Shown here: positions 8,567 through 26,248 of the stretch, piece after piece | Layout of the letters: the number at the start of each line of letters is the position of its first letter | Numbering within the stretch: the first letter of the stretch is position 1 | From: Parcubacteria group bacterium Greene0416_36 | Lineage (GTDB): Bacteria; Patescibacteriota; Patescibacteriia; VMEV01 | Length of the DNA: 49,164 nt | Direction of reading: 5' to 3' | Assembly: GCA_007375725.1 (NCBI GenBank) | Contig: VMEV01000010.1 | Coordinates: 1-49,164, forward strand | Program-made: the position numbers and the translations under genes | The notes under the pieces: generated by a model | Told to the model about the DNA's origin: nothing | Database searches by the model: none | What the model saw: only the letters and a program-made list of their open reading frames with translations

Positions 8567-9682
8567 CTACTTCTGCACCACTATATAAATATGGTCATCC
8601 ATAGAGGGAACCGACCGCACCCAGAAAGGTGAAAATTCAACAGTGACTTCGCCAACCCCGGGTTTGGAGGCGAAATAATCAATCAATTCCTGGCGAGATT
8701 TGCCTTTGATCGCCTCTTTATCTACGAGAGCGCTGGTTCCTTTGAGGATGCCTTTGGCGGCCATGGAAATTTTGATTTGAGCAGATTTGGCCACGGGATC
8801 ATATTTCTCCAGCTTAAAAGTCAAACTGTCTGAATTGATACCAATGACTTCCATGTCAGTACCCGCCTGACGATACAATTCCTTTTTTGCTAATTCCGCA
8901 ATTTTAACAGGATTCGAAATCAAAACTTGCACCCTGACCTTCATGGCGACCTCAAAATTGGATTTATTATCTCCCGAAGCAGCTGATACGCTTTCGGATT
9001 CAACCAAAACCCAGGAAGCCTCCCGCAAAATGGACTCCCCTACTTCCAAAGCGGATCCGGCCTGCTGGAAAGCGAGATCCTCCAAATCTTTCTGCAAGGT
9101 CGCTTTGGCGGAGGCAATTTCCTGTTCGGTCACGGAATAGACGAATTTTTTACCTCCGGAAAAAGCCTCGGAGCTTTGGCCATAAATAATATTCTCAAAA
9201 GGCTTGCCTAAGCCAGGGACAGAAAACATCCCGGGGGATACATTCCCCTTCTCTCCCTTGTCATCCGCTACGACTTCGACCTCCACTGTGCCTCCCTTGG
9301 GAACTAGAATACGGCGGTTAGTTCTGAAAATAAGCCCGCCGGAAGAGGCAAATCGAGTTTTGGGAACAAGAATTTGATCAGACGAAGATTTGTTGTAAAC
9401 CGTGAGTGTGCCTGTGGCAAAATCATCCGCCCCCGACCCTCCAGGAGCAGACTCGAATTTCTTGGAATCCGACGAGTTGATTTCCAAAACCCGGCCCGCG
9501 ACTCCCTCTTTCTCGGACAAAGAAACCGTTTCAATAAAATCAACGGATAGTTCCGTTTCTTTGGGACGGATGGTGATGGAGGCGTAAGACACCGAAATAT
9601 ATAAAACCACAACAATCACCACCAGGGTCAACCCCGCGAAAGTCAGAGCCAGCTGGCGGTAAAGAGAGACGGAACGATCCAT
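8567..9682 (-). CDS. Membrane-anchored protein with baseplate J-like domain (type common in Patescibacteria)
   Basis: N-terminal TM helix; ATGTLTVYN...L.PKTRF...GLIFRT...VPKGG.VEVEVVAD..GEKGN signature. Confidence 0.7.
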   Translation of the reverse strand: MDRSVSLYRQLALTFAGLTLVVIVVVLYISVSYASITIRPKETELSVDFIETVSLSEKEGVAGRVLEINSSDSKKFESAPGGSGADDFATGTLTVYNKSSSDQILVPKTRFASSGGLIFRTNRRILVPKGGTVEVEVVADDKGEKGNVSPGMFSVPGLGKPFENIIYGQSSEAFSGGKKFVYSVTEQEIASAKATLQKDLEDLAFQQAGSALEVGESILREASWVLVESESVSAASGDNKSNFEVAMKVRVQVLISNPVKIAELAKKELYRQAGTDMEVIGINSDSLTFKLEKYDPVAKSAQIKISMAAKGILKGTSALVDKEAIKGKSRQELIDYFASKPGVGEVTVEFSPFWVRSVPSMDDHIYIVVQK

Positions 9683-9848
9683 ATTAAAATAGGATTTAGG
9701 GTTTAGGATTCAGGAAAGAAACACACACCACAACTCAAGATCATTTAAAAATTACATTCATATTATACCAAAAAAACAAAAACAAAAAAACGTAGGGGCG
9801 GTCCAACGTTACATCGGACCGCCCCTGCATTTATAAAAAAGAATTTCT

Positions 9849-10130
9849 CTAAAGCACCGCATCCTTGCAGGCCTTGGCAACGCGAAATTTGACCACGGTC
9901 TTGGCTGGAATCTGGATCTGGGCGCCGGTGGCGGGATTGCGGCCCATGCGGGCGGCGCGGTCCTTCTTCACGAGCTTACCCAATCCTGGAACCACAAATT
10001 CGCCATTCTTTTTGACCTCAGAATAGGCAATTTCGGTTAAAACACCCAAGAGCATGGCAACATCCTTTTTGGTGTGGCCGGTCTTGGAGGCGACTGCTTC
10101 TAACAACTGAGATTTTGTCATCTTTGACAT
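9849..10130 (-). CDS. hup: DNA-binding protein HU
   Basis: MTKSQL...GLGKL....RAARMGRNPATG..I.IPAK.VVKF. Confidence 0.95.
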   Translation of the reverse strand: MSKMTKSQLLEAVASKTGHTKKDVAMLLGVLTEIAYSEVKKNGEFVVPGLGKLVKKDRAARMGRNPATGAQIQIPAKTVVKFRVAKACKDAVL

Positions 10131-10337
10131 AACCTTTTATTTTAATTATAAAGTTTTTCGAATTTTATTGGATAAGGTATTTTTTGTAAAGACGTGCCAT
10201 GACGCGTCTCTACAAAAAATACCTCGTCCGCAAAAATTCTCTACTTTTATACTCCCTATGATACACAATAAAAAAAGGGTTGCAAGACATTCACTCATCC
10301 ACAGCCCGCCGAAGCTTTAATCTTTTTTTTGGTAAAG

Positions 10338-10598
10338 TCAAATTTTGGCGTCCGTTTCTCCCAAAAAAAGAGACCCAATTTTGCCGTTCAAATCATTGAT
10401 TTGCTTCGTAAAATCAAGGCGGAGCTCTTCTTCTGTACGGACGAAATTCGCGCGCTGATCCACGCTTAAATTTTTATCCGGATCTGCGATCATTGCATCC
10501 AACAAGTCCAATAAGTTTTCCACATAGCGGGACTGTTTTTGGATCTGGCTGTAATAGTAAGAAACGATTTCTTTTTTTTGTTCTTGGGATAAAGCCAT
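10338..10598 (-). CDS. Small hypothetical helical protein
   Basis: ORF from MALSQEQ, tightly packed in the minus-strand gene run. Confidence 0.6.
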   Translation of the reverse strand: MALSQEQKKEIVSYYYSQIQKQSRYVENLLDLLDAMIADPDKNLSVDQRANFVRTEEELRLDFTKQINDLNGKIGSLFLGETDAKI

Positions 10599-10602
10599 AA
10601 AA

Positions 10603-10821
10603 TTATTGCGCCAATTTTGCTCTAGCGGCACGAGTATCGGCGGCATCAACCTCTCTCATTTTCTCCATGATAACTGAGGGCAAAGGAGAACGTTTCAGCT
10701 CAGCAACCCAGCGGTCCGCCAGAGCGACTTTTTCTTTGTCCGACAAAGTTTCCGGTGTTTCCATCTTTTCTTCTGACGGAGCATCCGCTAATTTTTTTTC
10801 TGTCCTAATCTGTTCAGCCAT
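10603..10821 (-). CDS. Small hypothetical protein
   Basis: ORF from MAEQIRT; 4-nt gaps to both neighbours. Confidence 0.6.
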   Translation of the reverse strand: MAEQIRTEKKLADAPSEEKMETPETLSDKEKVALADRWVAELKRSPLPSVIMEKMREVDAADTRAARAKLAQ

Positions 10822-10825
10822 AAAG

Positions 10826-12262
10826 TTACAATAATAATTTAGCGCGCAAATCTTCCATATCGCTCTTTCCATTGCCGTCCGTGTCTTTTTTGAGGGGAGA
10901 TGTCTTGGAAATATTCACCTCATCCCCGTCATCCAGCCCATCGCCATCAGTATCGTTTTTGACAGGATCCGTTCGCACCGAACACACTTCCTCGAAGTCC
11001 GTTAGGCCATCCTTGTCAAAATCCAATTGGACCATCATTTTTTTCTGAGCATCGTCCAGATCACCACAATTTTTAGTTGCGAATCCTCCTAAAACTTCTC
11101 CATAATTGCCGGCAAAAATAACCGGCAAGTTATAGGATCGGCCGAGAAAAGTCCCTTTGGAGCATTGACCGGAGGATAGAGACAGCTCAAAGAATGCGGT
11201 GGGACAGAGCCCAGCGTCCACATCTTCTTTATCGGTTTTCCCGTTTTGGTTCGTGTCGCGGTCCCCCGGGTTAGATCCGTAATCATTGACTTCAATACCA
11301 TCTGATAAACCGTCACCGTCTTTATCCGTACTCAGCGGATCGGAACCAATGCCCAAAAATTCATCTCCATCACCCAAACCGTCGCCATCGGTATCAAACT
11401 TAGTTGGGTCCGTATTGAACCATAATTCTTTCTCATCCGGAATCCCATCTTTGTCATAATCCAAAATAAATTCCGTATTGCTCAATTTGTACGTACAAAC
11501 CGTCTTGGCGGATTCCAATGGAATCTTGGCACAATCTTTGGCGTCTCGGGCCTCGCGATACTGGACCCAGGAACTATATTGATCAAGGACCGTCTTATTT
11601 TTAATCTGGCCCTCGGCTGGAATATCGGATCGAAGCGCATTGACTAAACATAATTTGGAATATTCGAGAGATGTAATGCCGCCACAGACCGAGACACTCT
11701 CTTTGCCAGCGGCGAGAACCGCGAGATTCAAAGCGAGCACGCGGTCCTTGCACTCTACGGCCTCATGGCTATCGTCCAACGAATCGCAAATCCCCGCCTG
11801 GGCCTTATCAACCGCCATAGAGGCAATGCACCGCTCGCGAAGAGATACCGTAGAAATCATGGCGCATTTTTTCGGATCACCGCTCTCTCTGCCTACACGA
11901 AACAGACAATCATTTCTATAACCATCTTCGTAAATACCCAAGCACTGGTCTATGCTTTTGGCATTACTGATCACTTCTGTATGAATAAATTCGTCGATAC
12001 ACCCCTCTTTGGCATCTCCTTCGGCCAAGCCAACACAGCCTTCTTTGGTTGGAATCAAAGGGGGACTCACCAACCTGCCGCCCTCTTCAAAGACCGTATT
12101 GCCGGGTTCATCCAGCAAACGGCGAAAAGCAGGATCTATGCCGCTGGAATCCGGAATCGTCACATCTCCCTCTCCCACGCTGGAAAAAAACCAGACCCCT
12201 CCGGCTAACAAAATAACCGCAGATAAAGCAATGATGGCCCATTGAAATTTAGATAGATTCAT
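10826..12262 (-). CDS. Membrane-anchored Cys-rich protein with Ca-binding DxDxDG (TSP3/binary-toxin-like) repeats
   Basis: N-terminal TM (from MNLSKF), C-x-x-I...C helical repeats, multiple DTDGDGL.DG.E....TDP repeats. Confidence 0.85.
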   Translation of the reverse strand: MNLSKFQWAIIALSAVILLAGGVWFFSSVGEGDVTIPDSSGIDPAFRRLLDEPGNTVFEEGGRLVSPPLIPTKEGCVGLAEGDAKEGCIDEFIHTEVISNAKSIDQCLGIYEDGYRNDCLFRVGRESGDPKKCAMISTVSLRERCIASMAVDKAQAGICDSLDDSHEAVECKDRVLALNLAVLAAGKESVSVCGGITSLEYSKLCLVNALRSDIPAEGQIKNKTVLDQYSSWVQYREARDAKDCAKIPLESAKTVCTYKLSNTEFILDYDKDGIPDEKELWFNTDPTKFDTDGDGLGDGDEFLGIGSDPLSTDKDGDGLSDGIEVNDYGSNPGDRDTNQNGKTDKEDVDAGLCPTAFFELSLSSGQCSKGTFLGRSYNLPVIFAGNYGEVLGGFATKNCGDLDDAQKKMMVQLDFDKDGLTDFEEVCSVRTDPVKNDTDGDGLDDGDEVNISKTSPLKKDTDGNGKSDMEDLRAKLLL

Positions 12263-12272
12263 AGGGTGTAAA

Positions 12273-15266
12273 TTACAAACAGTAACAAGCGGTTTCGAGC
12301 AAATCGTAGCCATGATAAGCACAAGTGTCCCCAGGATTTTCCTGATAGACGGGTGTCTTGCCTCGGGCATTGTCCAGATTGGCAAATCCGGAACAGGTCG
12401 ACACGCCGGTTACGCCATAAGGTTTGCATAAACCGCAAACATTGCTATTGACATCATTAGGCATTGGAGAATAGATGCTTCCTGCGGTTCTCCAATACGA
12501 ATAAGGATCATTAGCCCGGCAATAGTACTCATATTTATCATAGCCGGTAGAGTAATGGTTGGAATAGCTAGGCTGAATACGATCACCCGTATAATAATCC
12601 ATTCCAAAAAAACTCTTACAATTAGTACTTGCTTGGTTGGCGGACAAATTCATTGAGATAGTCGCTATCCCATTATTATTGCAACCACCAGGAGTTGAGA
12701 AGGCATCATCACGAACATATACACAGGCATTGGTCTTAGGGTTAGTAAATCCAACTCCCACGCAGACCCGATTCGTTTTACCGCAAATATCATCGCATCG
12801 AAATCCCTTCTTAAGCGCCGGAAGGCCTGGACTGAAAGCCACCGGTCCGCTGATGGGAACCAAATCCTCTACTCCCGCGCGCACAATCACAAAAGGCTTG
12901 TCTCCAATGAGGCCATCAGCGAATTCAGCCTTTTGATTGATTTCTTTGGATGCGGGATCGGTGGGTGCGGCACAACAATAGTCATGTATGGCTTTATCAA
13001 AAACGTCTGCGCAAACAAGTTTATTGTTCTGGCAGAGGAAAACTCCTTTTTGGCATTCATCGGGCTCGGTAATTCCAATACCTCCCCCACCGACTCGGAT
13101 TTTATCAACATAACAACCTACTCCCAAAGATTCGCCCTTAGGTCCTTTATTGTTGCAAGGCGAATCTTGTGGGAGGAGCTGACAATCTCTCTTGCAAAGA
13201 GTCAGCCTCGCCTTCCATGTGGCTTCATTGTAATTGGGAGGTTTGGACTCTAGAGGATCGCATTGTTCTATACCGGTCACTCGGCCGTCGCCGCAGGTAT
13301 CCGCGTCACATACATCGCCCAGAGGCGCCCAGCCGAATTCTTTCTCTAGTTGGGCGTCAGTATTAGTCTGAAGCGCATCCGAAATAAAGGGACAAAGGTC
13401 CGCGGCTCCGGAGAAACGGATAGAACAGTCTAGGCTCCCTGTATTAACCGTACATTTTCCATTCTCCTTGGCCGGACAAGCACAGACACCATCACCATCG
13501 ATATCATTGTCCGGATCATAGAAACAGCAGTCGCAGACATCGCCTACTCCGTCGGCATCACGGTCTGATTGATCCGTATTGGAAGAAAGAACGCAATTAT
13601 CCTTGGCTCCGGATTTTTCGGGACTTGAAAAACGGGGCCCCGCACAAACGCCATCGCCATCGGCATCATTAGCAGGATCATCAGGACACCAGTCGCAGAT
13701 ATCACCGTAGGCATCTCCGTCCACATTTAGTTGATCTTCGTTGGCATCGTCCACGCAATTATCAGCAGTGTCAATAACCGTATCCTCATCTTTATCCGAC
13801 AAACAGCCCTCCGCAGCGGAGATAAAAAAACGATTACAAATCCACTGGTCGCAATTATCCTGACATTCGGCATTGGAGGGAGTATTGTCTCTAAAATCAC
13901 AGACTTCAAAGCCCTCTTTCTCTCCATTGCCGCACGTGCCAATATCTCCGGAACACGCGTCGCCCAAAAGAGGCCGGCCAGACTCGATTTCCTGCCGCTC
14001 ATCTGTATTTCTCTGATCAGGATTGGGGGCTAGCGGACAATTATCTTCCCCGCCGCGCTTGGTGCCTCCGGATTCGACGCCGCGGAATACGCCGCCGATG
14101 CAGAGGCCGTCGCGGTCGCGGTCATTTTCAGGGTCTAAGGGGCATTCGTCACAGCCGTCTCCCACGCCGTCACGGTCGCGATCACACTGAGCATTGGTTC
14201 GGCGTTCTGGATCGCCCGACTGAGGCTGATAACAAATTCCGGGACGATTGCGGAGCTGGAAGCAGGTCTCGCCAGGGGCGAGCTGATCCACGGTAACAAA
14301 GGCAAATTTCTGATCCTCGGAGCACGCGATATCGCCGAAGCGGTCGCCGGAGGGACAAATATCTAGAGAATTGGGAATACCGTCGCGATCATTGTCGGTC
14401 GTATCCGCGGTCTTGAAGAAAAAACAGCCGGCCGAATCCAGCGGATTATCCACTACACCCTGCCAAGAACCCTCCCCTTTATATTCAAAATTGGCATACA
14501 GCTCGTAGCTGTCGCCATTTTCCATGGAACGATAGCCGTATACCTGGGCTCCGGTGGGACAAAAAAATTGTTTAGAGCGTTCATTCCAGCAAGTCACGGG
14601 ATCCACGTCCTCAGCGCGGCATCCGAAAAATTTATTCTCCGGATCAATGGGAATATCTTTTCCCAGCTCACGGCCCAAGGTCTCCTGCCAGGAAGGCCAG
14701 ACGGAAAAACTCCAGCCCGTCTGGTAACTGCCGGCTCGAAGATCAGGATACACTTTTTTGCCTTTCTTATAATCTTCCAAAATGCGGCGGAGATCATTGA
14801 TTTCCATCACGCGCCGAAGATCTTCCTGAATGCTTTTTTTCACCAGGCCCTCAGGATCAATTTCTTCCCCAATATTAGAATTAAAACGCCAAGTGCGAAT
14901 GAGCTGGCCTAAAATTTCGAGCACTTCCTGCTGGGCTCCTTCATTGAAAGAAATCAAATAAATATTGGAATAAAGCTTATCCCCCACTTTGTTCACAGCC
15001 GCCACATAAATCGTGCGGCCATCCCGGATAGCCGGATAGCCGTCCACCTCCAGCGCTTCCGGTTCCCCTGGATTAGGCACATTCTCCAAATACCATTCCA
15101 AAGGCGATAATATTCCATTGATATAAGTATGCGGATACTGCGCCAAATCCCCGGCATTCTGAATCACACGCACGCCGATCACATTTTGAATGGCAGATGC
15201 CTTGTCAGGTAAAGACAGCTCAAAGATAATAAAAAAAGATAAAATTAAGAGAAGCCGACGGAGCAT
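12273..15266 (-). CDS. Large secreted Cys-rich surface protein with thrombospondin type 3 repeats and a pilin-like segment
   Basis: Signal peptide; DNCP..PNPDQ.N.D.DG.GD.CD repeats; CGNG..E..E.CD repeats; D.RR......L...LE.Y......YP segment. Confidence 0.85.
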   Translation of the reverse strand: MLRRLLLILSFFIIFELSLPDKASAIQNVIGVRVIQNAGDLAQYPHTYINGILSPLEWYLENVPNPGEPEALEVDGYPAIRDGRTIYVAAVNKVGDKLYSNIYLISFNEGAQQEVLEILGQLIRTWRFNSNIGEEIDPEGLVKKSIQEDLRRVMEINDLRRILEDYKKGKKVYPDLRAGSYQTGWSFSVWPSWQETLGRELGKDIPIDPENKFFGCRAEDVDPVTCWNERSKQFFCPTGAQVYGYRSMENGDSYELYANFEYKGEGSWQGVVDNPLDSAGCFFFKTADTTDNDRDGIPNSLDICPSGDRFGDIACSEDQKFAFVTVDQLAPGETCFQLRNRPGICYQPQSGDPERRTNAQCDRDRDGVGDGCDECPLDPENDRDRDGLCIGGVFRGVESGGTKRGGEDNCPLAPNPDQRNTDERQEIESGRPLLGDACSGDIGTCGNGEKEGFEVCDFRDNTPSNAECQDNCDQWICNRFFISAAEGCLSDKDEDTVIDTADNCVDDANEDQLNVDGDAYGDICDWCPDDPANDADGDGVCAGPRFSSPEKSGAKDNCVLSSNTDQSDRDADGVGDVCDCCFYDPDNDIDGDGVCACPAKENGKCTVNTGSLDCSIRFSGAADLCPFISDALQTNTDAQLEKEFGWAPLGDVCDADTCGDGRVTGIEQCDPLESKPPNYNEATWKARLTLCKRDCQLLPQDSPCNNKGPKGESLGVGCYVDKIRVGGGGIGITEPDECQKGVFLCQNNKLVCADVFDKAIHDYCCAAPTDPASKEINQKAEFADGLIGDKPFVIVRAGVEDLVPISGPVAFSPGLPALKKGFRCDDICGKTNRVCVGVGFTNPKTNACVYVRDDAFSTPGGCNNNGIATISMNLSANQASTNCKSFFGMDYYTGDRIQPSYSNHYSTGYDKYEYYCRANDPYSYWRTAGSIYSPMPNDVNSNVCGLCKPYGVTGVSTCSGFANLDNARGKTPVYQENPGDTCAYHGYDLLETACYCL

Positions 15267-15271
15267 AAAAC

Positions 15272-15351
15272 AATTACGAATTACGAATGACGAATTACGA
15301 ATGGATCAGCCAGTTGTTCAATTCGTAATTCGTAATTTCTAATTCGTAATT
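15272..15351. repeat. Inverted heptamer tandem repeats (AATTACG/CGTAATT); related tracts at 29008-29073, 36032-36135, 43235-43268, 43633-43666, 45147-45178 and 46520-46548
   Basis: aattacgaattacgaatgacgaattacgaat ... attcgtaattcgtaatttctaattcgtaatt. Confidence 0.8.
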
Positions 15352-17842: not shown

Positions 17843-17881
17843 AAAAAGCAAATCCTCGAGAGGAAGTTTCCAATCGAGGAT
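17843..17881 (-). terminator. Terminator closing array 1
   Basis: ATCCTCGA...TCGAGGAT stem followed by TTGCTTTTT on the minus strand. Confidence 0.6.
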
Positions 17882-17888
17882 ATATTTC

Positions 17889-18865
17889 GCCAAATAGATT
17901 TGGCATAAACAAAAATTCGAATTAAAGCGCAAAATATTAGTAAACAAGAAAGAAATTTGTTATAAAACTTCGCGAGAAAATTCTCGCCTCAAAACTAATT
18001 CAACGCATTATAATCTGCAGAAATTCGAAATATAGTGAGGGATAGTACGTCGATACATTAAAGAGTACTGCCTATTCGAGACCTAAAAAAAAGTCTCCAG
18101 TAACTTAAAAGGCTACAATTAAATCTACGCTACTGGACCGTAGTCCGGTAGGGATATCATCATCCGTCCTTTATAAAAGGACCAGAACCATAATCTAATA
18201 AAAAACAAGACGTTCAACATAAATCCGTAGAAAACATGCCGAGCTTCGAAAAGCTCCTAGGCATTAAAACAGGGTGAAACACGGCAAAGGGACCTACAGA
18301 ACACTGATCCAAAATCCCACAACTTTCATGTCTATTATGACCAGACACCTTAAACGAACAATAATGTGCGGCAACACAATCCGAACTACGACACTTAACT
18401 TGGATATCCGAGCAAAAATGCTCCTGAAAAGTAGAGAAATCTGAAACAGTGAACAGGACCCTAGGGGACCAAAATACACTACACATCCGTCCGAAGAATT
18501 CGGACCAATAATAAACCGCAGACTGCAGGAAACAAATATAGGACATCTCGCAGGACATTGATTTCGCCCTTGATAAAAGGGCCAGAAGAACAATTTATCT
18601 TACTTTAAGATAAGATAATTTAATAAATTACAAGGCAAATAAATACATACCGAGCCAATGAAGGCTCCTTGGCACTACAATAAACTAAAGTAAAACAGAC
18701 CATAGTAATCTAAAGGACGCCACTCCATCCGCGAGCAAAGACTCGCCAAAAATCTAAATGACCGCAAGCTAAACCAAGGGAAATAAAACCAATAAGCCCA
18801 AAGGCAAACAATCCGAGAACGAAAAGCTCTCCTATGCAATATTCTTCCTAAACAAACAGAAAGGC
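17889..18865 (-). ncRNA. Putative guide-RNA array 1: 12 hairpins and 11 complete pentamer-periodic tracts
   Basis: Hairpins start at 17889, 17972, 18078, 18166, 18241, 18328, 18410, 18489, 18566, 18652, 18731 and 18815. After each of the first 11, the + strand has a purine every 5 nt for 10-16 steps, starting exactly 5 nt from the stem. No credible ORF. Confidence 0.85.
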
Positions 18866-18890
18866 CTTTTCAAAGAACAGCAACCCAATA

Positions 18891-18919
18891 AATCTAGTCT
18901 AATAGCCAAAGAATGTCAA
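18891..18919 (-). promoter_or_regulatory. sigma70 promoter for array 1
   Basis: Minus strand TTGACA-17 nt-TAGATT, followed by boxA-like TGTTCTTTGAA (18869-18879). Confidence 0.75.
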
Positions 18920-18930
18920 TCCTCCCAACG

Positions 18931-18970
18931 AAAAAACAGCTTATTTTGTTCAATAAGCTGTTTTCTGTTT
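18931..18970 (-). terminator. Intrinsic terminator after the helicase gene
   Basis: aaaacagcttatt-ttgttc-aataagctgtttt. Confidence 0.7.
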
Positions 18971-18996
18971 CTTCTAAAAAACAAAAAGTAATATAG

Positions 18997-21030
18997 TTAT
19001 TTCTTCAAAAACGCACGGGCATCCAGACAACAATCTGCAAAGGTTTTGCCAGATATATAAGAGGTTCTTAGCTTTTCAGGGAGGGCGTAATAGACAAGCC
19101 CCTTAAATCTCTGATCATAACAGATCGTAACGGATTTGATTTTCCCGTCGCGTTCCGTACGGCCGCGGGCTTGCTTGATACGGATCTTGACCAGCCATTG
19201 ATGGATAGCGAAAGCGCCGTTTTTGCCGAACTTGCGATTCTCGAACTTCGACTCGGGAGAATTCGGATCAGGGTATCCAGGACGAAGGGTGATCACTACT
19301 TGAGCCAGACCATCCGGCAAGTCAATCCCTTCGGAAAAATTCTGCTCCGTACCGAGTAAAACCATGCCTTTGCCACCGCGAAACAATTCCACAGCTTCTT
19401 TGGGAGTTTTCGGCATAGTACCCAGCATCGCATCCGATCTCGGACTATTCGAACTGCGACCTCGGGAATAAGTGATGACATCGAGATTTTCTTTGTCCGG
19501 AGAGGAATAGAATAAGAACTTATCCAACTCTTGATGCGATCCAACCAGAACTAAAACACGAATCCCTTCGGCGTTAAAAAGTTTGCATTCCTTAACAATA
19601 CTTTCCAGGCTCTTGGCAGGTTCTCTATCCGAACGCACACTGTAAGCCAGACTCGGAGTGTCGCTCGGCATATAAATACGGGTGTTCTCAGCCGGGAAAC
19701 CGGATTCGAGAAAAAGATACTGAGGAAAATCAATGCCGGAAATATACCCAAAAACAGTACGGTCGCCAATGGTGGCGGACATCGCCAAAGTTCGGGACAA
19801 AAGCACTTTCTTACGAATCAGAGGCCTCACATGATGGGACTGGATGGTAAGGCGATTGATGACTTTTGGCCCCCTTCCTCCGTATTCTTCTTCTGGAATG
19901 GGTTCAGACACAAAATAACTGAATACATAGTTGAGTGCCATGTGCTTGATTTCATCATTTTCTTCCTTGGGAATAGCATAACGAAGGGACTGGATGTACC
20001 TCCAAAGATTGAAAAGAAGATTCTGCACCTCATTGAGAGCTTCGCGCCCTCCTTCCGCTTGGCTCGCCATTTTCTCCAATTCATTTTTTTTGGATTCCAA
20101 AGGAGAAGTGTCAATGGCTTCCAAGGCTTTGATGAGTTTTTTGATTTCATCATCTTCCAAGACGATTTTGGTGAAAGGAGGCTTATTCCTAGATACGATT
20201 TTCTTGAACACAACGAGAAATTTCTTGAGAGAGACGGACACACTTTCGTCCACTTTCTCCACGACCTCAATCGCGCGTTCTAAATGCCAGTCAGTAATAT
20301 CGTAAGAGAGGACATTGCGCACCAGTGGCGTGATATTGTGAACTTCATCCAGGACCACCGCGTCATGATCTTCCCAAACCCCTTTCTCGCTTTTAAAAAG
20401 CCTCATGATCAAATAAAAGGCATACGTGGTCACAACAATTCCCTCGTACTGCTTAGCCGCATATTTATGAGCATAATACGGACAGGGAACCGCCCCTTCT
20501 TCAAGAGTTTTTCCAGTCGCCTGATCCACCCGATGACCGCAGCTTCGCAGTATCGCACAAGGAATTTCATTGGCTTTCCACGCCGGCTTTTGATCCGGAT
20601 AATAAAGACAATCATGAGACTCTCTGCCTTCGAGCACAAATACCATATCCGAAAAACGCTTAGCGATTTGTTTGGCTTGAGCCAAATTGGGCACCACGTA
20701 GAAAATTCGTTTATAGCCATGCAATTTCCGAAGAACTGAAAGCCACACGATACCAATGAGAGACTTGCCGACGCCAGTTTCTCCCTCCAATAAAACTTGA
20801 TCATGGCCTTGGGATAGAAAACGAAAAGCCTTGAGCTGAGCCTCTCTCATTCGGAAATAACGCGGAATATGCCAAGGAAAACACTCCACATAAGGAGCCA
20901 ATGCCGGATTGGCAGCGACTTCCACAGCAAGCATTTCTCTTGTATACCCTTCCTGAGGCGATTCTTGTACGATCGGAATAGGGGAAGGTGTATCTGCAAT
21001 TGAACCCAATAATAATTGATCCGCCATCAT
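18997..21030 (-). CDS. DinG/Rad3-family SF2 helicase with probable FeS-binding cysteines
   Basis: GETGVGKS (motif I), DEVH (II), SAT (III), EGIDLP (V), QARGRTER (VI); GRESHDC...PC....C...PCPYY cysteine cluster. Confidence 0.88.
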   Translation of the reverse strand: MMADQLLLGSIADTPSPIPIVQESPQEGYTREMLAVEVAANPALAPYVECFPWHIPRYFRMREAQLKAFRFLSQGHDQVLLEGETGVGKSLIGIVWLSVLRKLHGYKRIFYVVPNLAQAKQIAKRFSDMVFVLEGRESHDCLYYPDQKPAWKANEIPCAILRSCGHRVDQATGKTLEEGAVPCPYYAHKYAAKQYEGIVVTTYAFYLIMRLFKSEKGVWEDHDAVVLDEVHNITPLVRNVLSYDITDWHLERAIEVVEKVDESVSVSLKKFLVVFKKIVSRNKPPFTKIVLEDDEIKKLIKALEAIDTSPLESKKNELEKMASQAEGGREALNEVQNLLFNLWRYIQSLRYAIPKEENDEIKHMALNYVFSYFVSEPIPEEEYGGRGPKVINRLTIQSHHVRPLIRKKVLLSRTLAMSATIGDRTVFGYISGIDFPQYLFLESGFPAENTRIYMPSDTPSLAYSVRSDREPAKSLESIVKECKLFNAEGIRVLVLVGSHQELDKFLFYSSPDKENLDVITYSRGRSSNSPRSDAMLGTMPKTPKEAVELFRGGKGMVLLGTEQNFSEGIDLPDGLAQVVITLRPGYPDPNSPESKFENRKFGKNGAFAIHQWLVKIRIKQARGRTERDGKIKSVTICYDQRFKGLVYYALPEKLRTSYISGKTFADCCLDARAFLKK

Positions 21031-21123
21031 TTTTTCCTTTCAGGAAAATTAATAAGAAACAAACTAAAACACGAACAGGTTCATTCAATCAGAAAACCCA
21101 TAATTTGTAAAGACTCGTCCAAT

Positions 21124-21153
21124 AAAAAAACACTCTCTTGGCGAGAATGTTTT
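21124..21153 (-). terminator. Possible terminator/attenuator between the RAMP-like gene and the helicase
   Basis: Minus strand aaaacattctc-gccaa-gagagtgtttt, then ttt. Confidence 0.5.
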
Positions 21154-21186
21154 AATTGTCCAATATTTCACTATAAAATCTATCGA

Positions 21187-22053
21187 TTATGTTTTTCCGG
21201 AATTCGCAGGAAGAGAAACTCCTTCCTTCACTTCTTCCTCTTCCATTTTATACGGAAGCGAAATGTATTCATAATCGTCTTCTTTCAAGAGTTCTTTCTT
21301 TACTTCTTGCACACGAACAATCTTGAAGGTACCGTTGGTGCCGTTACAGTTTACACGATAGGACCCGATTCCATAGATCACACCGCCGTTTTTGAGGCAT
21401 TGAAGCGCGATATCGATAGTCTTGGGACCCAAACGATCTTTGACTTCGCAGAGGAATTTGATCTGGGTGCCTTCGGGGTATTCGGGACGCACAATGCGGC
21501 AAGTGATTTCAGCTTTTGGAATAACACCGCGGTCTTCATTGACACGGAATTTTTCCTTTCCGACAATGCACATTTCCTGATCCACAAATTCGGCAGTATA
21601 CCCCAAAATCCTGAAAAAAGAACCGATAATGCTTCCGCTGGTCTTGGTGGAAACTTTCTTGCGATTGCCCAAATCCACATCACATCCCCCGCAACGAGTA
21701 GCCGCATAAATCCACTTGGCAGGCACGCCCGATTTACCAGAATCAGGATCGATCCACACTTTTTTCCTGGCAATTTCTATGCCCGGAAGCCCTTTTACCT
21801 TAACTTTCTTATCAGCAGAATCGATTTCCAATAATTTCTCTGGAGTCATCGGATCGCCCAAAAGTGGAGAGGTCGTTTGGATCGTGATTTCCAAAATGGT
21901 GATATATTTGGTTCCATACGAAACAGGAGAGGAACCTTTCTTTTCCTTTTTCTTCCCCTTTTCAGCGCTCGCCGCACTATCAGCAACGGTTTCAACCACG
22001 GGAATCGGTTCAGTCGCGACAGCAGAGGAACTATCATTTTTTTGTCTAGCCAT
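21187..22053 (-). CDS. Stand-alone RAMP/Cas7-like protein (288 aa)
   Basis: AAGGAG RBS before ATG 22053. LEITIQTTSPLL first strand, G.P...I.AA helix, RPEY...T.I.F and a C-terminal glycine-rich loop GG..YGIGSYR....G..GTF, which is the RAMP/Cas7 layout. Judged by eye, no HMM run. Confidence 0.75.
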   Translation of the reverse strand: MARQKNDSSSAVATEPIPVVETVADSAASAEKGKKKEKKGSSPVSYGTKYITILEITIQTTSPLLGDPMTPEKLLEIDSADKKVKVKGLPGIEIARKKVWIDPDSGKSGVPAKWIYAATRCGGCDVDLGNRKKVSTKTSGSIIGSFFRILGYTAEFVDQEMCIVGKEKFRVNEDRGVIPKAEITCRIVRPEYPEGTQIKFLCEVKDRLGPKTIDIALQCLKNGGVIYGIGSYRVNCNGTNGTFKIVRVQEVKKELLKEDDYEYISLPYKMEEEEVKEGVSLPANSGKT

Positions 22054-22112
22054 GCTAGATCTCCTTAAAAACAAAATACTCAATCTACACAAAACACTAA
22101 AAAATAACAATC

Positions 22113-22353
22113 GAGGTTCAAAGACCCCCTTTACAATACACTACTTAAAAATAAACAGATGAAAAATGAAGGAACATACTCTATTTCGAGGTTAAAACCT
22201 CCAAAACATTAACTTACGAAACAACAAATTAATTAACACCGTTTTAAAGAAATCAATAAAACAGTATATACCGCCCGCATAATGCAGGCCTAAACCTCAC
22301 AGGGATTGACGCAAATCCGCGCAATTATACTCAGAGGTAATCTGCAGGAAAAT
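22113..22353 (-). ncRNA. Putative guide-RNA array 2 (3 units) in the leader of the RAMP-like gene
   Basis: Hairpins 22113-22128, 22188-22201 and 22273-22289; purine every 5 nt on + for 11, 13 and 12 steps from 22133, 22206 and 22294; G.U pairs form only on the minus strand. Confidence 0.82.
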
Positions 22354-22499
22354 TGTCGTTCTAATTGTAAAGAACGTGTTCATCCAAGCATAACCCCAAA
22401 TACTTGTCAAATCTTCCAGGATATGCTTCAATGATGAGTCCAATGTAATTTCAGACCGAGAGACTATAAAACAAATTCCAATCAAAACAGGAGAAACAA

Positions 22500-23489
22500 A
22501 TGAACGATATCGCAACAAGACCAGTACGCGAAAAGAGTCCATGGACCGTGGCCTTTGAAAACAGAAAACATCTCGGAGATTTTTCTACCCCAGCTTGGAA
22601 ACAGGCATATGGTATTATCAATAAAGATTTTTCCAGATTCGAAATACTCGACTGCCCAAATAAAGCGGGACTTACCATTGACTGCGGGCACGCCAGAATC
22701 AAAAACCAAGCAATCGGGATAGAAGGAAACACCTTAATGGTGCACATCTCCGATGTCGCAAGCTTCATTCCCAAAGACAGCCCTCTGGATGTCGAAATGC
22801 AGAGCCGAGTCATATCCATACAAAATTCCAGGATTCTCCCCTTCCGGTTAGCAAAGGAACAGTTCTCGCTGGAACAGAATCAGAAAACCAAATGCCTCAC
22901 GTTCCAATGGGCATTCGATGAATACGGAGAAATCAATCAGTTGCGACGAAAAATATACCATTCCAATGTCGAGGTCCCGATATCGATTTCATTTGAACAA
23001 GCCGATGGCATCCTCGAGGATCCTCTACACAAATACCACCCAGTCATACGAAGCCTCAAATCGATCGGAGAACATCTGGTCGACCTGCGCATCCGCAATG
23101 AGTGGACATTCACGCGCGAACGAAAAAAAACATGGGTGGAAAAAAACGGACAATGGATTTTCACAGACTATATCGACGGGTCTCAATCCCCCAATGACTG
23201 GATCATGCAGGAGGTCATGATTCTAGTGAATTACACCGTGGCATCCCTGTTAGACCAATTGGGTATCCATGGATGCTACACCGATCCCTATCGCTCTCCC
23301 AATGGTATCCGCTATTGCCAAGCCACAGCCCCCATGCATAATTTGGAAGATCTTGTAAATCAAAGGATTCTATTGGCATTATTATCACTCGGGAAAATTC
23401 CTATACCCTATACCCTGGAAGAAATGGAGGAAATCAAAACCAAAACCAATCGCATGTACTTCGCCCGATCTTCGGGAGGGAAAAAATAA
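22500..23489 (+). CDS. RNB (RNase II/R catalytic)-domain protein, predicted inactive
   Basis: TID...LMVHISDVASFIP.DSPLD.E..R..S, FSL, EVMILVN and ATAPM..LEDLVNQRIL match RNB motifs; the catalytic DxDD is replaced by IKNQ. Confidence 0.75.
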   Translation: MNDIATRPVREKSPWTVAFENRKHLGDFSTPAWKQAYGIINKDFSRFEILDCPNKAGLTIDCGHARIKNQAIGIEGNTLMVHISDVASFIPKDSPLDVEMQSRVISIQNSRILPFRLAKEQFSLEQNQKTKCLTFQWAFDEYGEINQLRRKIYHSNVEVPISISFEQADGILEDPLHKYHPVIRSLKSIGEHLVDLRIRNEWTFTRERKKTWVEKNGQWIFTDYIDGSQSPNDWIMQEVMILVNYTVASLLDQLGIHGCYTDPYRSPNGIRYCQATAPMHNLEDLVNQRILLALLSLGKIPIPYTLEEMEEIKTKTNRMYFARSSGGKK

Positions 23490-23500
23490 AAAACAAACAA

Positions 23501-23661
23501 TTCTGTCCTGTCTATTTGCCTAGATCAAAACAAACTAAATTTGAATTTAGGTCCTTTATAATAAAGGACGAAAAAATTTCACATTATTCACGTCAAACAA
23601 ACCTAATTCACGTGGACTTAATTTCATTCCTGTTCGTCTCTGAGCCTCTCTAATCGAGGCT
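23501..23661 (+). ncRNA. Putative guide-RNA array 3 (2 units), opposite orientation, downstream of RNB-like gene 1
   Basis: Pyrimidine every 5 nt at 23501-23546 (10 steps) and 23588-23638 (11 steps); each tract ends 5 nt before a hairpin (23551-23569, 23643-23661) that is followed by GAAA/GGAAAT. Confidence 0.78.
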
Positions 23662-23668
23662 GGAAATC

Positions 23669-23717
23669 AAAAAGTAGCTTCTTCTCAAATTTCAGAAAAA
23701 GCTACTTTTATTTTTTT
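23669..23717. terminator. Bidirectional terminator between convergent arrays 3 and 4
   Basis: AAAAGTAGCTT...AAGCTACTTTTATTTTTTT. Confidence 0.7.
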
Positions 23718-23718
23718 C

Positions 23719-23957
23719 AGCCCCCAGAGAGGGCTCTTGAATATACTATAATTTAGAGTGCCTGAAAGAACAGAACAATAAGGCACGGAAAAGCAAACCG
23801 CGTTTTTAGAAAAACGCCAACACTTAACTCTTGATCGAAATAAAATAATACACAGGAATAAACTATAATAGAACAGCATCCGAGTATGGTGAGTACTCCT
23901 AGAATTGAATGGAATTTACAACAAAGGACAATGATGAGCACCAATCTACAGTAAAAG
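23719..23957 (-). ncRNA. Putative guide-RNA array 4 (3 units)
   Basis: Hairpins 23719-23735, 23800-23817 and 23882-23898; purine every 5 nt from 23740 (12 steps), 23822 (10 of 11) and 23903 (11). Confidence 0.82.
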
Positions 23958-23966
23958 TACCCAATG

Positions 23967-23995
23967 AAACTAGCAATTGGATAGAGGGATGTCAA
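23967..23995 (-). promoter_or_regulatory. sigma70 promoter for array 4
   Basis: Minus strand TTGACA-17 nt-TAGTTT with TG extended -10. Confidence 0.7.
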
Positions 23996-24081
23996 GAGCA
24001 AGCCCTTGTACAATCGATCCGGATATGCTTCAATACTCTCGATTTTCAGTATATTTATCTCTCATTTTAAGGAGTCCAAAA

Positions 24082-25029
24082 ATGGCTAAAAATGGCCAAA
24101 AAAAGAAGATCAACTGGAAAGAGTATTTTGAAAAAAGACAGAATTCGTATCTGTCGGATGCGTCACGCGAAGAATTCGTCAAACATCTGCATTCTGCAGC
24201 ATCCGAAAATAAAAAAATAGAAAGGACAATAATCACCAGCATCACATTCGACAAGGAAATCTATATGAATGAGGCGATACTGATCGAATATCCCTATATT
24301 CATATCAGCGTCCCGGATATAGTCAGTCTCGTTACTCCCAAGAAGACACTGGATAAAGAATTGTACGAGAGAGCCTCTTCCGTTAAAGATAACCCTCTTT
24401 TTCCGGAAGATCTCATCAACCTTCGATCCTCTTTCAAGCATGATGAACTTCGAAATGCTTATACTCTCTCTTGGAAATTTGGCGATGCCGGAGAAATTCA
24501 AGAACCCAAATTTTATCCCAGCCAAATTCTATCAATTGGATATATCCAACCTTCGCCAAGCGCTGAAGCTAAAGACTATCCCAAGAACTTGGAACAAATC
24601 GGACTAAAACTCATTGATCGCAGAATCAAAACGTTTCAGCTCTTCAAGAAAGAGGAAAAATTGCCAGTTGCAGAGAAAGAAGGCTATAAAATTTTCGAAT
24701 GCTACCTCAGAAACTCCACCATGAGCTGGGTTGAAAAAGAACTTGCCATCTTTGCCAATATCCAAGCTGGGGAACTATTTCATCAGAAAGGCATAGCCGC
24801 ATGTTTTGCCTCTCCCTATGGTTCTCCCTGTGAAACCCACTATGCTCCCATCATGCGGCCGCTGGATTCCTATCGAGATCTCATCAATCAGCGAGCACTC
24901 TTGTCAATTTTCACCGGACTCAAAAAGGATTTCCCCTATACTCCCGCGCAGATAGCGAAAATAAATGAAAGGATTCAAACACGGTACAGCGCGTGGAAAA
25001 ATCTAGAAAAGAAAAATTCTAATCTATGA
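24082..25029 (+). CDS. Second RNB-like protein (paralogue), predicted inactive
   Basis: AAGGAG RBS before ATG 24082; IHISVPDI...LD.E..ERASSV, ELAIFAN and HYAPIMRPLDSYRDLINQRAL; catalytic aspartate motif lost. Confidence 0.7.
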   Translation: MAKNGQKKKINWKEYFEKRQNSYLSDASREEFVKHLHSAASENKKIERTIITSITFDKEIYMNEAILIEYPYIHISVPDIVSLVTPKKTLDKELYERASSVKDNPLFPEDLINLRSSFKHDELRNAYTLSWKFGDAGEIQEPKFYPSQILSIGYIQPSPSAEAKDYPKNLEQIGLKLIDRRIKTFQLFKKEEKLPVAEKEGYKIFECYLRNSTMSWVEKELAIFANIQAGELFHQKGIAACFASPYGSPCETHYAPIMRPLDSYRDLINQRALLSIFTGLKKDFPYTPAQIAKINERIQTRYSAWKNLEKKNSNL

Positions 25030-25056
25030 AATTGATCGGTTTCCAAAAAAACCATC

Positions 25057-25100
25057 AAAAAAGTAGCCGATATTTAACCATCAGGCTACTTTTATTTTTT
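25057..25100. terminator. Bidirectional terminator between RNB-like gene 2 and array 5
   Basis: AAAAGTAGCC...GGCTACTTTTATTTTTT, nearly the same as 23669-23717. Confidence 0.7.
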
Positions 25101-25102
25101 CC

Positions 25103-25482
25103 GTGGATTGAATCCACCTGCACACAAATTGATTATGGCTTGAGTCAAGGCAATCCGAAATAATATAGAGAAATCTACGATAATTCAAAAAACAGAACAG
25201 CAATCCGCGCTCTTTTCTAAAAGCGCCTTAAATTTACATTAAATCAATGTAAGTTACACCGGTCGAGACTAAAGAGGTACAATTCGCCTGATAAGTCAGG
25301 CCAGCGATAAAAACCAACTCAAACTACATAAATCTGATATACGTAAATATGACGAAACCATTCGCGTCTGAAAAGACGCCTAGACAAGAAAGCAACGAAA
25401 TCAACACTAAGCCAAATAACAGAACAATAATCCGCGCCCCATTCAATGAGCGCCTACAATAAAAACAAGATTAAATAGAAAA
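25103..25482 (-). ncRNA. Putative guide-RNA array 5 (5 hairpins; 4 complete tracts plus a short leader tract)
   Basis: Hairpins 25103-25117, 25207-25226, 25286-25301, 25364-25379 and 25434-25453; purine every 5 nt from 25122 (17 steps), 25231 (11), 25306 (11), 25384 (10) and 25458 (5). Confidence 0.85.
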
Positions 25483-25505
25483 CACAACAAATTAAGAACT
25501 CATCA

Positions 25506-25534
25506 AACTTATACAATCAATCAATGATTGTCAA
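25506..25534 (-). promoter_or_regulatory. sigma70 promoter for array 5
   Basis: Minus strand TTGACA-17 nt-TAAGTT, then boxA-like GTTCTTAA. Confidence 0.7.
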
Positions 25535-25539
25535 GGGTG

Positions 25540-25571
25540 TGTCGCAAAAACATAATAATGTCTTTGCGACA
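25540..25571. promoter_or_regulatory. Palindromic operator-like site TGTCGCAA-N16-TTGCGACA (second copy at 34375-34406)
   Basis: Identical half-sites and spacing at two loci, each between back-to-back TTGACA boxes. Confidence 0.65.
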
Positions 25572-25606: not shown

Positions 25607-25629
25607 ACACACAAATAATGTGTAAAGAT

Positions 25630-25890
25630 ATGTCAACTATCACACTCTCACCCAATACGAAAGAACGCATCAATGTCATGCTTCCACGACGGATCATCCG
25701 TTCGATCGGCCGTCTATCGAAAAATAGAAAACGAAGCCAATTCATCGCAACCGCGGTCGATTTTTATATTGATTCAATGCAAAACAAAAAACTCAAATCT
25801 CTTCTACAAGAAGGAGCGCAAAAAAGATCCGAAAGAGATCAGATAATCACCGAAGAAATGGGCCTCATCGATACGGTTTATGAAAAATAA
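25630..25890 (+). CDS. Ribbon-helix-helix antitoxin (MazE/EndoAI-like)
   Basis: RINVMLP...I......RSQFI..AV pattern; overlaps the start of the toxin gene. Confidence 0.8.
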   Translation: MSTITLSPNTKERINVMLPRRIIRSIGRLSKNRKRSQFIATAVDFYIDSMQNKKLKSLLQEGAQKRSERDQIITEEMGLIDTVYEK

Positions 25891-26248
25891 GACCCTTTTC
25901 CCAAAGCGAGGCGAAATATATCTCGTCAATTTTGATCCTACAGTAGGAGCGGAGATGAAAAAAACACGGCCGGCTCTCATTTTACAAAATGATATTGCAA
26001 ACAAATATAGCGCCATAACCATCATCGCAGCAATCACCTCTCAATTCGAACTGCCTCTCTACCCTACTGAAGTTTTATTGGACTCTTCCGCATGCCGGCT
26101 AGACAAAGAATCAGTCATAGTACTCAATCAAATCCGATCCATCGACAAAACACGCCTGATCAAAAAAATCGGAGAAATTCCAGCGAAGTCATTACAGCAA
26201 ATAGAAATAGCACTAAAAATAAGCCTGGGTCTTATAAAGATAGAATAA
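25880..26248 (+). CDS. mazF: PemK/MazF-family toxin endoribonuclease
   Basis: KRGEIYLVNFDPTVGAE.KKTRPALILQND..N, QIRSIDK.RL. Confidence 0.93.
   Translation: MKNKTLFPKRGEIYLVNFDPTVGAEMKKTRPALILQNDIANKYSAITIIAAITSQFELPLYPTEVLLDSSACRLDKESVIVLNQIRSIDKTRLIKKIGEIPAKSLQQIEIALKISLGLIKIE

Follow-up and report, generated by a model that had tools for sequence, protein, structure and literature searches.

The 49,164-nucleotide stretch of contig VMEV01000010.1 of Parcubacteria group bacterium Greene0416_36 (positions 1 to 49,164; this whole stretch is referred to here as the window) contains a small RAMP-type gene resembling those of Cas7 proteins, a helicase gene downstream of it, four intergenic arrays of five-nucleotide repeats on the same strand, and two plus-strand genes for RNB-domain proteins that lie between the arrays. 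The primary concern of this study is the RAMP-type open reading frame (ORF), which is considered as the candidate vipr gene of a Viral Interference Programmable Repeat (VIPR) system. The two genes at the center of the locus are:

21187..22053 (-): vipr gene, encoding a 288-amino acid Cas7-like RAMP with a core at about residues 50-255
18997..21030 (-): gene for a 677-amino acid XPD/DinG-family helicase of superfamily 2 (SF2), vap-like, downstream of vipr, with Walker A and DEAH/DExH motifs

VIPR (Viral Interference Programmable Repeat) systems are built on Vipr, a small RAMP that branches before Cas5, Cas6, and Cas7, and their loci consist of vipr, in most cases a single accessory (vap) gene, and extended intergenic regions on either side (10.64898/2026.04.26.720920). 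The vrRNAs are ~100 nucleotides (nt) long, with 9-16 YNNGG pentamers and a conserved 3' tail, the figure of 9-16 pentamers per RNA applying to type II systems; the variable NN pairs read double-stranded DNA with one target base skipped per unit (10.64898/2026.04.26.720920). Seven types are distinguished, with nucleases or helicases in types III-V, and cellular chromosomes carry 25.5% of VIPR loci (10.64898/2026.04.26.720920). One Vipr protomer is present per repeat, and the action of accessory helicases and nucleases is posed as an open question (10.64898/2026.04.26.720927). The describing papers allow related consensus sequences (NNNGG, YNNNG, and NNNNG), and 21 clusters of non-canonical arrays, including WGT/NN, occur beside Vipr-like folds (10.64898/2026.10.21.760802).

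The Vipr protein and its family

A phmmer search of 1.84 billion representative proteins returned 79 at E <= 1e-3, the best at 4.8e-12. Four matches of 757-1638 amino acids, which resembled multi-RAMP fusions, were HYR/cadherin repeat proteins and were excluded, and the resulting Vipr-like family has 75 members including the query, with lengths of 187-295 amino acids. All members other than the query (74 of 75) match phrog_4652, a family of unknown function. The query protein itself was the only match in a word-indexed search of 5.8 billion proteins. The family profile matches a single solved structure, PDB 36pp, which is the "SUSP1 Vipr protein" (E 3.6e-16). The family was also rebuilt without the query to keep the homology test non-circular; the query-free profile matches SUSP1 Vipr at E 1.9e-16, and the query aligns to the query-free family with a probability of 99.8% (hhalign, E 5e-29, 201 columns). 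An earlier note on this DNA, made from the sequence alone, had called the protein an orphan. That description does not hold, because the protein belongs to a family of ~75 members whose profile matches the solved Vipr, and it stands in a system with a helicase and arrays.

The AlphaFold2 model, based on the 75-sequence alignment, has a mean predicted local distance difference test (pLDDT) score of 82.1 and a predicted template modeling (pTM) score of 0.74, with most of the core (residues 50-255) above 90; predicted from the single sequence without an alignment, the structure reaches a pLDDT of only 31.8. The closest folds to the model are Cas7 proteins, and the model has the single RRM core and glycine-rich loop of the RAMP fold. 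The strand motif ITILEITIQTTSPLL occupies residues 51-65, the RP motif is R189-P190 within VRPEY, and the glycine-rich loop GIGSYRVNCNGTNGTF spans residues 228-243. Residues 1-49 are rich in lysine, serine, and alanine (8, 8, and 7 residues), residues 256-288 are acidic (seven glutamates and two aspartates among 33 residues), and pLDDT is low in both regions. The suggestion of the earlier note that these tails could bind a partner such as the helicase is speculative. The earlier note had read the protein as RAMP/Cas7-like on the basis of an SPLL-type strand, an RP motif, and a glycine-rich loop, with a disordered N-terminus and an acidic C-terminal tail, and had proposed a search for structural matches as the check. 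All three motifs are present, the composition and pLDDT of both tails agree with the description, and the reading is supported by the profile match to the solved Vipr and by nearest folds that are Cas7 proteins. An AAGGAG Shine-Dalgarno sequence lies 7 nt 5' of the ATG at 22053; a longer frame of this ORF starting with TTG is also listed, but is unneeded.

Repeat arrays

Four intergenic arrays are found on the vipr strand, with ~20 units in total:

17852..18890 (-): array D, ~10 units, each a pentamer tract and a hairpin
18831-18815, 18746-18731, 18667-18652, 18582-18566, 18505-18489, 18423-18410 (-): canonical hairpins of array D
18256-18241, 18182-18166, 18097-18078, 17987-17972, 17904-17889 (-): canonical hairpins of array D, continued
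17881-17852 (-): terminator-like hairpin closing array D
22188..22499 (-): array A, upstream of vipr, 2 units; hairpins 22289-22273 and 22201-22188
23719..23976 (-): array B, 3 units; hairpins 23898-23882, 23817-23800, and 23735-23719
25103..25547 (-): array C, 5 units; hairpins 25453-25434, 25379-25364, 25301-25286, 25226-25207, and 25117-25103

In a base-blind scan, segments with A at every fifth base of the plus strand (at least 9 of 10) numbered 54 in the whole 49 kb, against 0, 9, and 7 in three shuffles. Forty of the 54 fall in the four intergenic regions around vipr, compared with a mean of 5.2 (sd 4.1, maximum 18) when the flanking regions were shuffled with dinucleotides preserved (n=200), and this excess upholds the statement of the earlier note that the gene is flanked by arrays on both sides. 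In the same four regions, periods of 4, 6, and 7 are at background level.

Read on the minus strand, the order of elements is a hairpin (14-20 nt, G...C), GGAU or a near variant, 10-13 pentamers, NNNG, and the next hairpin, and the candidate vrRNA can be written as 5'-(GGAU)-[N N W K U] x 10-13 -NNNG-hairpin-3'. Among 234 phased pentamers from 18 tracts, positions 1 and 2 are near uniform, position 3 is mostly A (0.36) or U (0.41), position 4 is U (0.52) or G (0.28), and position 5 is U (0.80) or C (0.13), the value for U at position 5 being somewhat inflated because the phase was set to maximize U. The phased positions carry U at a frequency of at least 80% in 11 of the 18 tracts; of the tracts of array A, one is well phased (12/14) and one weak (21/42). 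Two paralogous units of array C differ at eight sites, every one of them within pentamer positions 1-3, and are identical at positions 4-5.

The hairpins were located by a ViennaRNA scan. All 20 have a closing G-C pair, G precedes 19 of them, and GGAU, GAAU, or a similar sequence follows. Across stem positions 2-5, every one of the 80 cells forms a pair, and each position shows 2-6 different pair types; with non-cognate arms, 45% of cells pair. These pairs were counted directly; MAFFT with RNAalifold returned no structure for the 20 hairpins, whose unequal loop lengths were misaligned. The tracts are thus capped by hairpins with conserved flanks and covarying stems, as a structured 3' tail would be. 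The minus strand has 20 copies of the flanked-hairpin motif from 17972 to 25453; the two strands of the whole 1.03-Mb genome together have 512, and no second cluster of the motif was found genome-wide. An Rfam scan of the window gave no match.

Strand and expression signals

The following sites bracket the genes and arrays:

18891..18919 (-): promoter-like site TTGACA-17-TAGATT, directly upstream of array D
25584-25555 (-): promoter-like site of array C
21127..21153 (-): terminator-like hairpin (11 pairs, then a T-run) in the gap from vipr to the helicase gene
18933..18964 (-): intrinsic-terminator hairpin (13 pairs, then a T-run) downstream of the helicase stop codon
23673-23706: bidirectional terminator hairpin, ending array B (-) and a plus-strand RNB gene
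25060-25092: bidirectional terminator hairpin, ending array C (-) and a plus-strand RNB gene

The summed hairpin energies are -132.4 kcal/mol on the minus strand and -116.0 kcal/mol on the plus strand; the minus strand folds better in 8 of the 20 hairpins, the strands are equal in 9, and the plus strand is better in 3. Folding is better on the minus strand because its G-U pairs would be C-A on the opposite strand. In the minus-strand reading each array opens with a tract and closes with a hairpin, an order that fits a tract followed by a 3' tail. The energies, the bracketing promoter and terminators, the order of tract and hairpin, and the periodic bases of related loci (see below) all favor arrays read from the minus strand, which is that of vipr. 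The hairpin between vipr and the helicase gene may be an attenuator that holds helicase expression below that of Vipr.

Related loci

A search of 40 other related genomes with the single query protein gave one weak relative, while a search with the family profile, run on 400 other genomes of the phylum, found a homologue in nine, each of ~0.6-1.0 Mb. Ten related loci were taken, and 58 of their 106 ORFs of at least 110 amino acids, those nearest vipr, were scanned. A helicase of 597-646 amino acids (Helicase_C_2 with DEAD or DEAD_2) is encoded on the vipr strand in eight of the ten loci; one of the other two loci ends 1.4 kb past vipr. In an alignment of nine helicases, with 33-39% identity to that of the window, Walker A, DExH, and three cysteine columns are invariant and the fourth cysteine is present in eight of the nine. 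The helicase-linked rows are dispersed over a quick and poorly resolved tree of the family (10 changes for 11 rows), and this scatter suggests that the whole Vipr-like family is helicase-linked.

In most related loci, period-5 arrays adjoin vipr. Their consensus is NNN-G-U, with G at position 4 at a frequency of 0.42-0.79, and the periodic bases are G and U when read in the orientation of vipr. An Rfam scan of seven of these loci returned only a tRNA, and no RNB domain was found among the 58 ORFs scanned.

Some of these loci have features of their own. The genome of locus L018 (G276:C1:2000-21000) carries vipr in two copies along with a single helicase, and its period-5 arrays extend over several kilobases, with hairpin separators that have a fixed stem sequence, AGCAAG...CUUGCU. 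In locus L023 (10280-11000, plus strand), a conserved block of ~85 nt with three hairpins separates the pentamer tracts and has no Rfam match; ribozyme-interspersed arrays are mentioned in the VIPR preprint (10.64898/2026.04.26.720920). Locus L026 (5323-7130, plus strand; G004:C20) encodes two Vipr paralogues in tandem; its contig, from a genome of the same order, is GC-rich (0.58), and one of these paralogues has a lysine-rich N-terminus and an acidic C-terminal tail like those of the window Vipr.

Comparison with described VIPR systems

Taken together, the ORF at 21187..22053 is very probably the Vipr of a chromosomal helicase-linked VIPR system with ~20 candidate vrRNAs (a probability of roughly 0.85), and the locus belongs to the helicase type of VIPR, its W-K-U repeat being degenerate. 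Like the SUSP1 and P. fulva prophage systems, it has a small single-RRM RAMP with a glycine-rich loop, no CRISPR array, one adjacent accessory gene, and intergenic tracts of ~60-70 nt with 10-13 pentamers, each with a 3' structure cap. It differs from them in being chromosomal rather than phage-borne, in a fixed trinucleotide that is W-K-U rather than GGY, in an accessory protein that is a helicase rather than a DNA-binding protein, and in the extra tails of Vipr (~49 and 33 amino acids). The 3' tail also differs: it is a hairpin of 14-20 nt whose stem varies by unit, whereas the tail of SUSP1 is invariant, ~40 nt long, and forms a pseudoknot. The conserved pairing of vipr with a helicase, in 8 of 10 related loci, resembles VIPR types III-V, which are said to encode nucleases or helicases. 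Similarly, the NNN-G-U pentamers of the relatives match the published WGT/NN arrays (10.64898/2026.10.21.760802), but at the window locus position 4 is U over G (0.52 vs 0.28).

In SUSP1 Vipr, H17 and D177 recognize G1 of the repeat and R138 and W178 recognize G2, and R179 forms part of the pocket that accommodates Y3 (10.64898/2026.04.26.720927). Mapping of these residues through the profile alignment (family n=75) gives the following equivalents:

SUSP1 R138 (G2 contact): R189 in the window Vipr; kept in 73 of 75
SUSP1 R179 (Y3 contact): R233 in the window Vipr; kept in 74 of 75
SUSP1 W178 (G2 contact): Y232 in the window Vipr; mostly F in the family
SUSP1 H17 (G1 contact): D67 in the window Vipr; not kept in the family
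SUSP1 D177 (G1 contact): S231 in the window Vipr; not kept in the family

The arginines equivalent to R138 and R179 are retained, while aspartate and serine stand in place of H17 and D177. As a correlation drawn from the alignment, this pattern agrees with a repeat in which the first G has been lost, the second weakened, and the pyrimidine kept.

Several results weigh against the assignment to VIPR. The query alone matches no model in Pfam, NCBIfam, PADLOC, or PHROG and does not reach Vipr in a phmmer search of the PDB, so its membership rests on profile transitivity; in the quick tree its branch is long (2.23) and its position lacks support. The canonical GGY is missing, neither GG nor YNNGG occurring at period 5 on either strand, and several tracts are poorly phased (17/31, 21/42, and 8/12). 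The 100% pairing of the stems is partly circular, because the hairpins were selected as hairpins. The sigma-70 and terminator calls are consensus matches only, with 22 promoter-like sites against 17.9 expected, and arrays B and C and the RNB genes run toward each other, an unusual layout. Finally, 16 guides composed of the two variable bases of each unit were searched against the organism's own genome with skip rules of 0-3, and at skips 0-2 the best scores equal those of shuffled guides. At skip 3 each guide matches its own locus only, and mild outliers among the 48 tests reach 21/24 at skip 2 and 21/26 at skip 0. The own genome gives no sign of self-targeting, and a search of this kind is uninformative on foreign targets.

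Some of these points would suit a locus in which the vipr gene is genuine and the arrays are decaying, non-guiding remnants with W-K-U as an eroded GGY. In addition to the missing GG periodicity and the own genome yielding no targets, in 7 of the 18 tracts the share of phased positions with U is below 80%, and tracts of 153 nt and 210 nt are barely periodic. Decay is unlikely, however, given that both ORFs are intact and the helicase retains the invariant Walker A, DExH, and cysteine columns, that the hairpin stems covary perfectly, that the paralogous units of array C have changed only at positions 1-3, and that the residues contacting G1 have changed in step with the repeat. The NNN-G-U of the relatives is an intermediate consensus, and WGT/NN arrays have been published beside Vipr-like folds. 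The missing GGY does not exclude membership in VIPR, because the describing papers allow both related consensus sequences and WGT/NN.

The helicase and the relation to CRISPR-Cas

The helicase of the window matches Helicase_C_2, DEAD, ResIII, and DEAD_2 in Pfam and has four cysteines in Fe-S-like spacing. XPD enzymes are Fe-S cluster proteins that translocate along single-stranded DNA in the 5' to 3' direction. The best solved relatives of the helicase family profile are archaeal and eukaryotic XPD (E ~1e-24), followed by FANCJ, CHL1, and DinG. As a neighboring XPD/DinG-type helicase with a predicted DNA-related function, it has the character of an accessory (vap) gene product.

A Cas7-like protein next to a DinG-like helicase could also be read as part of a reduced type IV-like CRISPR-Cas system rather than VIPR. 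The modeled fold is nearest to Cas7 proteins, and the helicase matches the PADLOC model "typeIV_DinG" (PDLC01439) over nearly its full length (E 6e-40, positions 17-566 of 575). As in type IV-A CasDinG, it is an SF2 helicase with Helicase_C_2, DEAD_2, and four conserved cysteines, and its partner is an RNA-guided binder of the Cas7-like kind. Elsewhere, the genome also has a Cas1 fragment and a small array. On the other hand, the helicase scores 21.4 bits on the NCBIfam Csf4 model (TIGR03117) against a cut-off of 400, and its closest kin among solved structures is XPD; identification as CasDinG was rejected for these two reasons, and from its sequence the helicase is filed as XPD/DinG-family. 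The window has no CRISPR repeat-spacer array and, more broadly, no CRISPR-like tandem or direct repeats, and PADLOC applied to five neighboring proteins gave the helicase as the only cas-like match, with none to Cas5, Cas6, or Cas8. Within the window, the placement of the gene outside any cas operon by the earlier note stands on these results. The Vipr family profile matches Vipr by sequence, identity to CRISPR Cas7 proteins (Csm3 of type III-A and Cas7 of type VII) is 9-15%, and the protein has neither partner Cas subunits nor the 6-nt register of those proteins, the repeat period being 5 nt. A reduced type IV-like CRISPR-Cas system is accordingly very improbable.

The Cas1 fragment mentioned above lies at the end of a separate 2.5-kb contig, which also has three repeats ~72 nt apart (G000:C10:92-289 and C10:784-966); the genome probably also has a badly assembled CRISPR-Cas locus.

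The mini-RNB genes

Two small genes for proteins with RNase II/R-type RNB domains are interspersed with the arrays:

22500..23489 (+): mini-RNB protein 1, 329 amino acids, RNase II/R-type RNB domain, between arrays A and B
24082..25029 (+): mini-RNB protein 2, 315 amino acids, between arrays B and C, with an ATG start and an AAGGAG site

Both match Pfam RNB above the cut-off (93 and 56 bits), at profile positions 11-224 of 326 only, and they are 30% identical to each other. In an alignment, their motif I is TIDCGHARIKNQAI, compared to TIDGADAKDLDDAV in RNase R; therefore three of the four metal-binding aspartates are replaced. By work on E. coli RNase II, these four aspartates are the catalytic residues, and judged from this motif the proteins are catalytically degenerate. 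Whether the genes belong to the VIPR system is uncertain. Housekeeping RNase R was considered as an identity for the RNB genes and rejected; with this query no mini-RNB protein was found in 150 other genomes of the class, and none was found in the 5.8-billion-protein set. The genome has a third and shorter copy on a different contig, where there are no arrays (G000:C19:44383-45090, minus strand).

Arrays A, B, and C flank these plus-strand genes, RNA 3' ends are bound by RNB domains, and for 3 of the 20 hairpins plus-strand folding is slightly more favorable, but the possibility that the arrays are read from that strand, as A-periodic RNA in the untranslated regions of RNB mRNAs that serves the RNB proteins rather than Vipr, is the faintest of those considered, since the largest array (D) adjoins no RNB gene, the relatives have similar arrays with no RNB gene in the 58 ORFs scanned, G-U pairs favor the minus strand, plus-strand terminators separate each RNB stop codon from the arrays, and the period-5 bases of the relatives follow the orientation of vipr.

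Proposed mechanism and implications

With the locus taken as a VIPR system, a mechanism can be transferred by analogy from the characterized SUSP1 and P. fulva systems. The arrays would be transcribed and processed to vrRNAs, and one Vipr protomer would bind each pentamer, burying the semi-conserved W-K-U and exposing the two variable bases. The Vipr filament so formed would read double-stranded DNA by a gapped code in which one target base is skipped per unit. The helicase may be brought to the resulting R-loop or triplex, or may sense it, and would convert binding into interference with a foreign element, possibly a phage or plasmid.

A more elaborate proposal joins the unusual features of the locus: a scaffold in which only U is firmly fixed in each pentamer, with a hairpin tail of free stem sequence, and dead mini-RNB proteins that represent a new class of VIPR accessory, holding or sensing vrRNAs or target transcripts at their 3' ends and forming with the helicase a host-domesticated multi-component effector. 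As a whole this combination is doubtful.

VIPR systems were described only in 2026 and have been proposed to be older than CRISPR, with Vipr as a very small programmable DNA binder. The window locus adds a chromosomal helicase-linked example, and its ~20 candidate guides are a large investment for a 1-Mb genome. The W-K-U consensus, together with the changed G1-reading residues, provides a natural test of the need for a GGY scaffold in Vipr, and the conserved pairing with an XPD-like helicase offers a specific setting in which to study the reading of Vipr-bound targets by accessory enzymes.

Genomic surroundings

The genome is 1.03 Mb with an estimated completeness of 100% and comes from a groundwater bacterium; the small size may reflect a reduced, possibly episymbiotic lineage. 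Four DNA sequencing runs, all from one groundwater study, contain the locus, and no RNA run is listed. The locus lies among housekeeping genes, with those for elongation factor P (EF-P) and MutS nearby and RpoB and RpoC further away, and phage hallmark genes are absent to a distance of 5 kb. A toxin pair at 25618-26248 on the plus strand, consisting of a MazE-like protein (weak HicB_lk_antitox match) and a MazF/PemK toxin, adjoins array C and suggests a small accessory or defense island.

Elsewhere in the window, inverted tandem runs of a 7-mer (AATTACG / AATTCGT) occupy intergenic positions at 15272-15351 and 45147-45178. The region 8567-15266 on the minus strand encodes a Baseplate_J-like protein beside two very large TSP3-repeat proteins (519 and 997 amino acids), which have weak similarity to myxobacterial cell-cohesion and gliding proteins.

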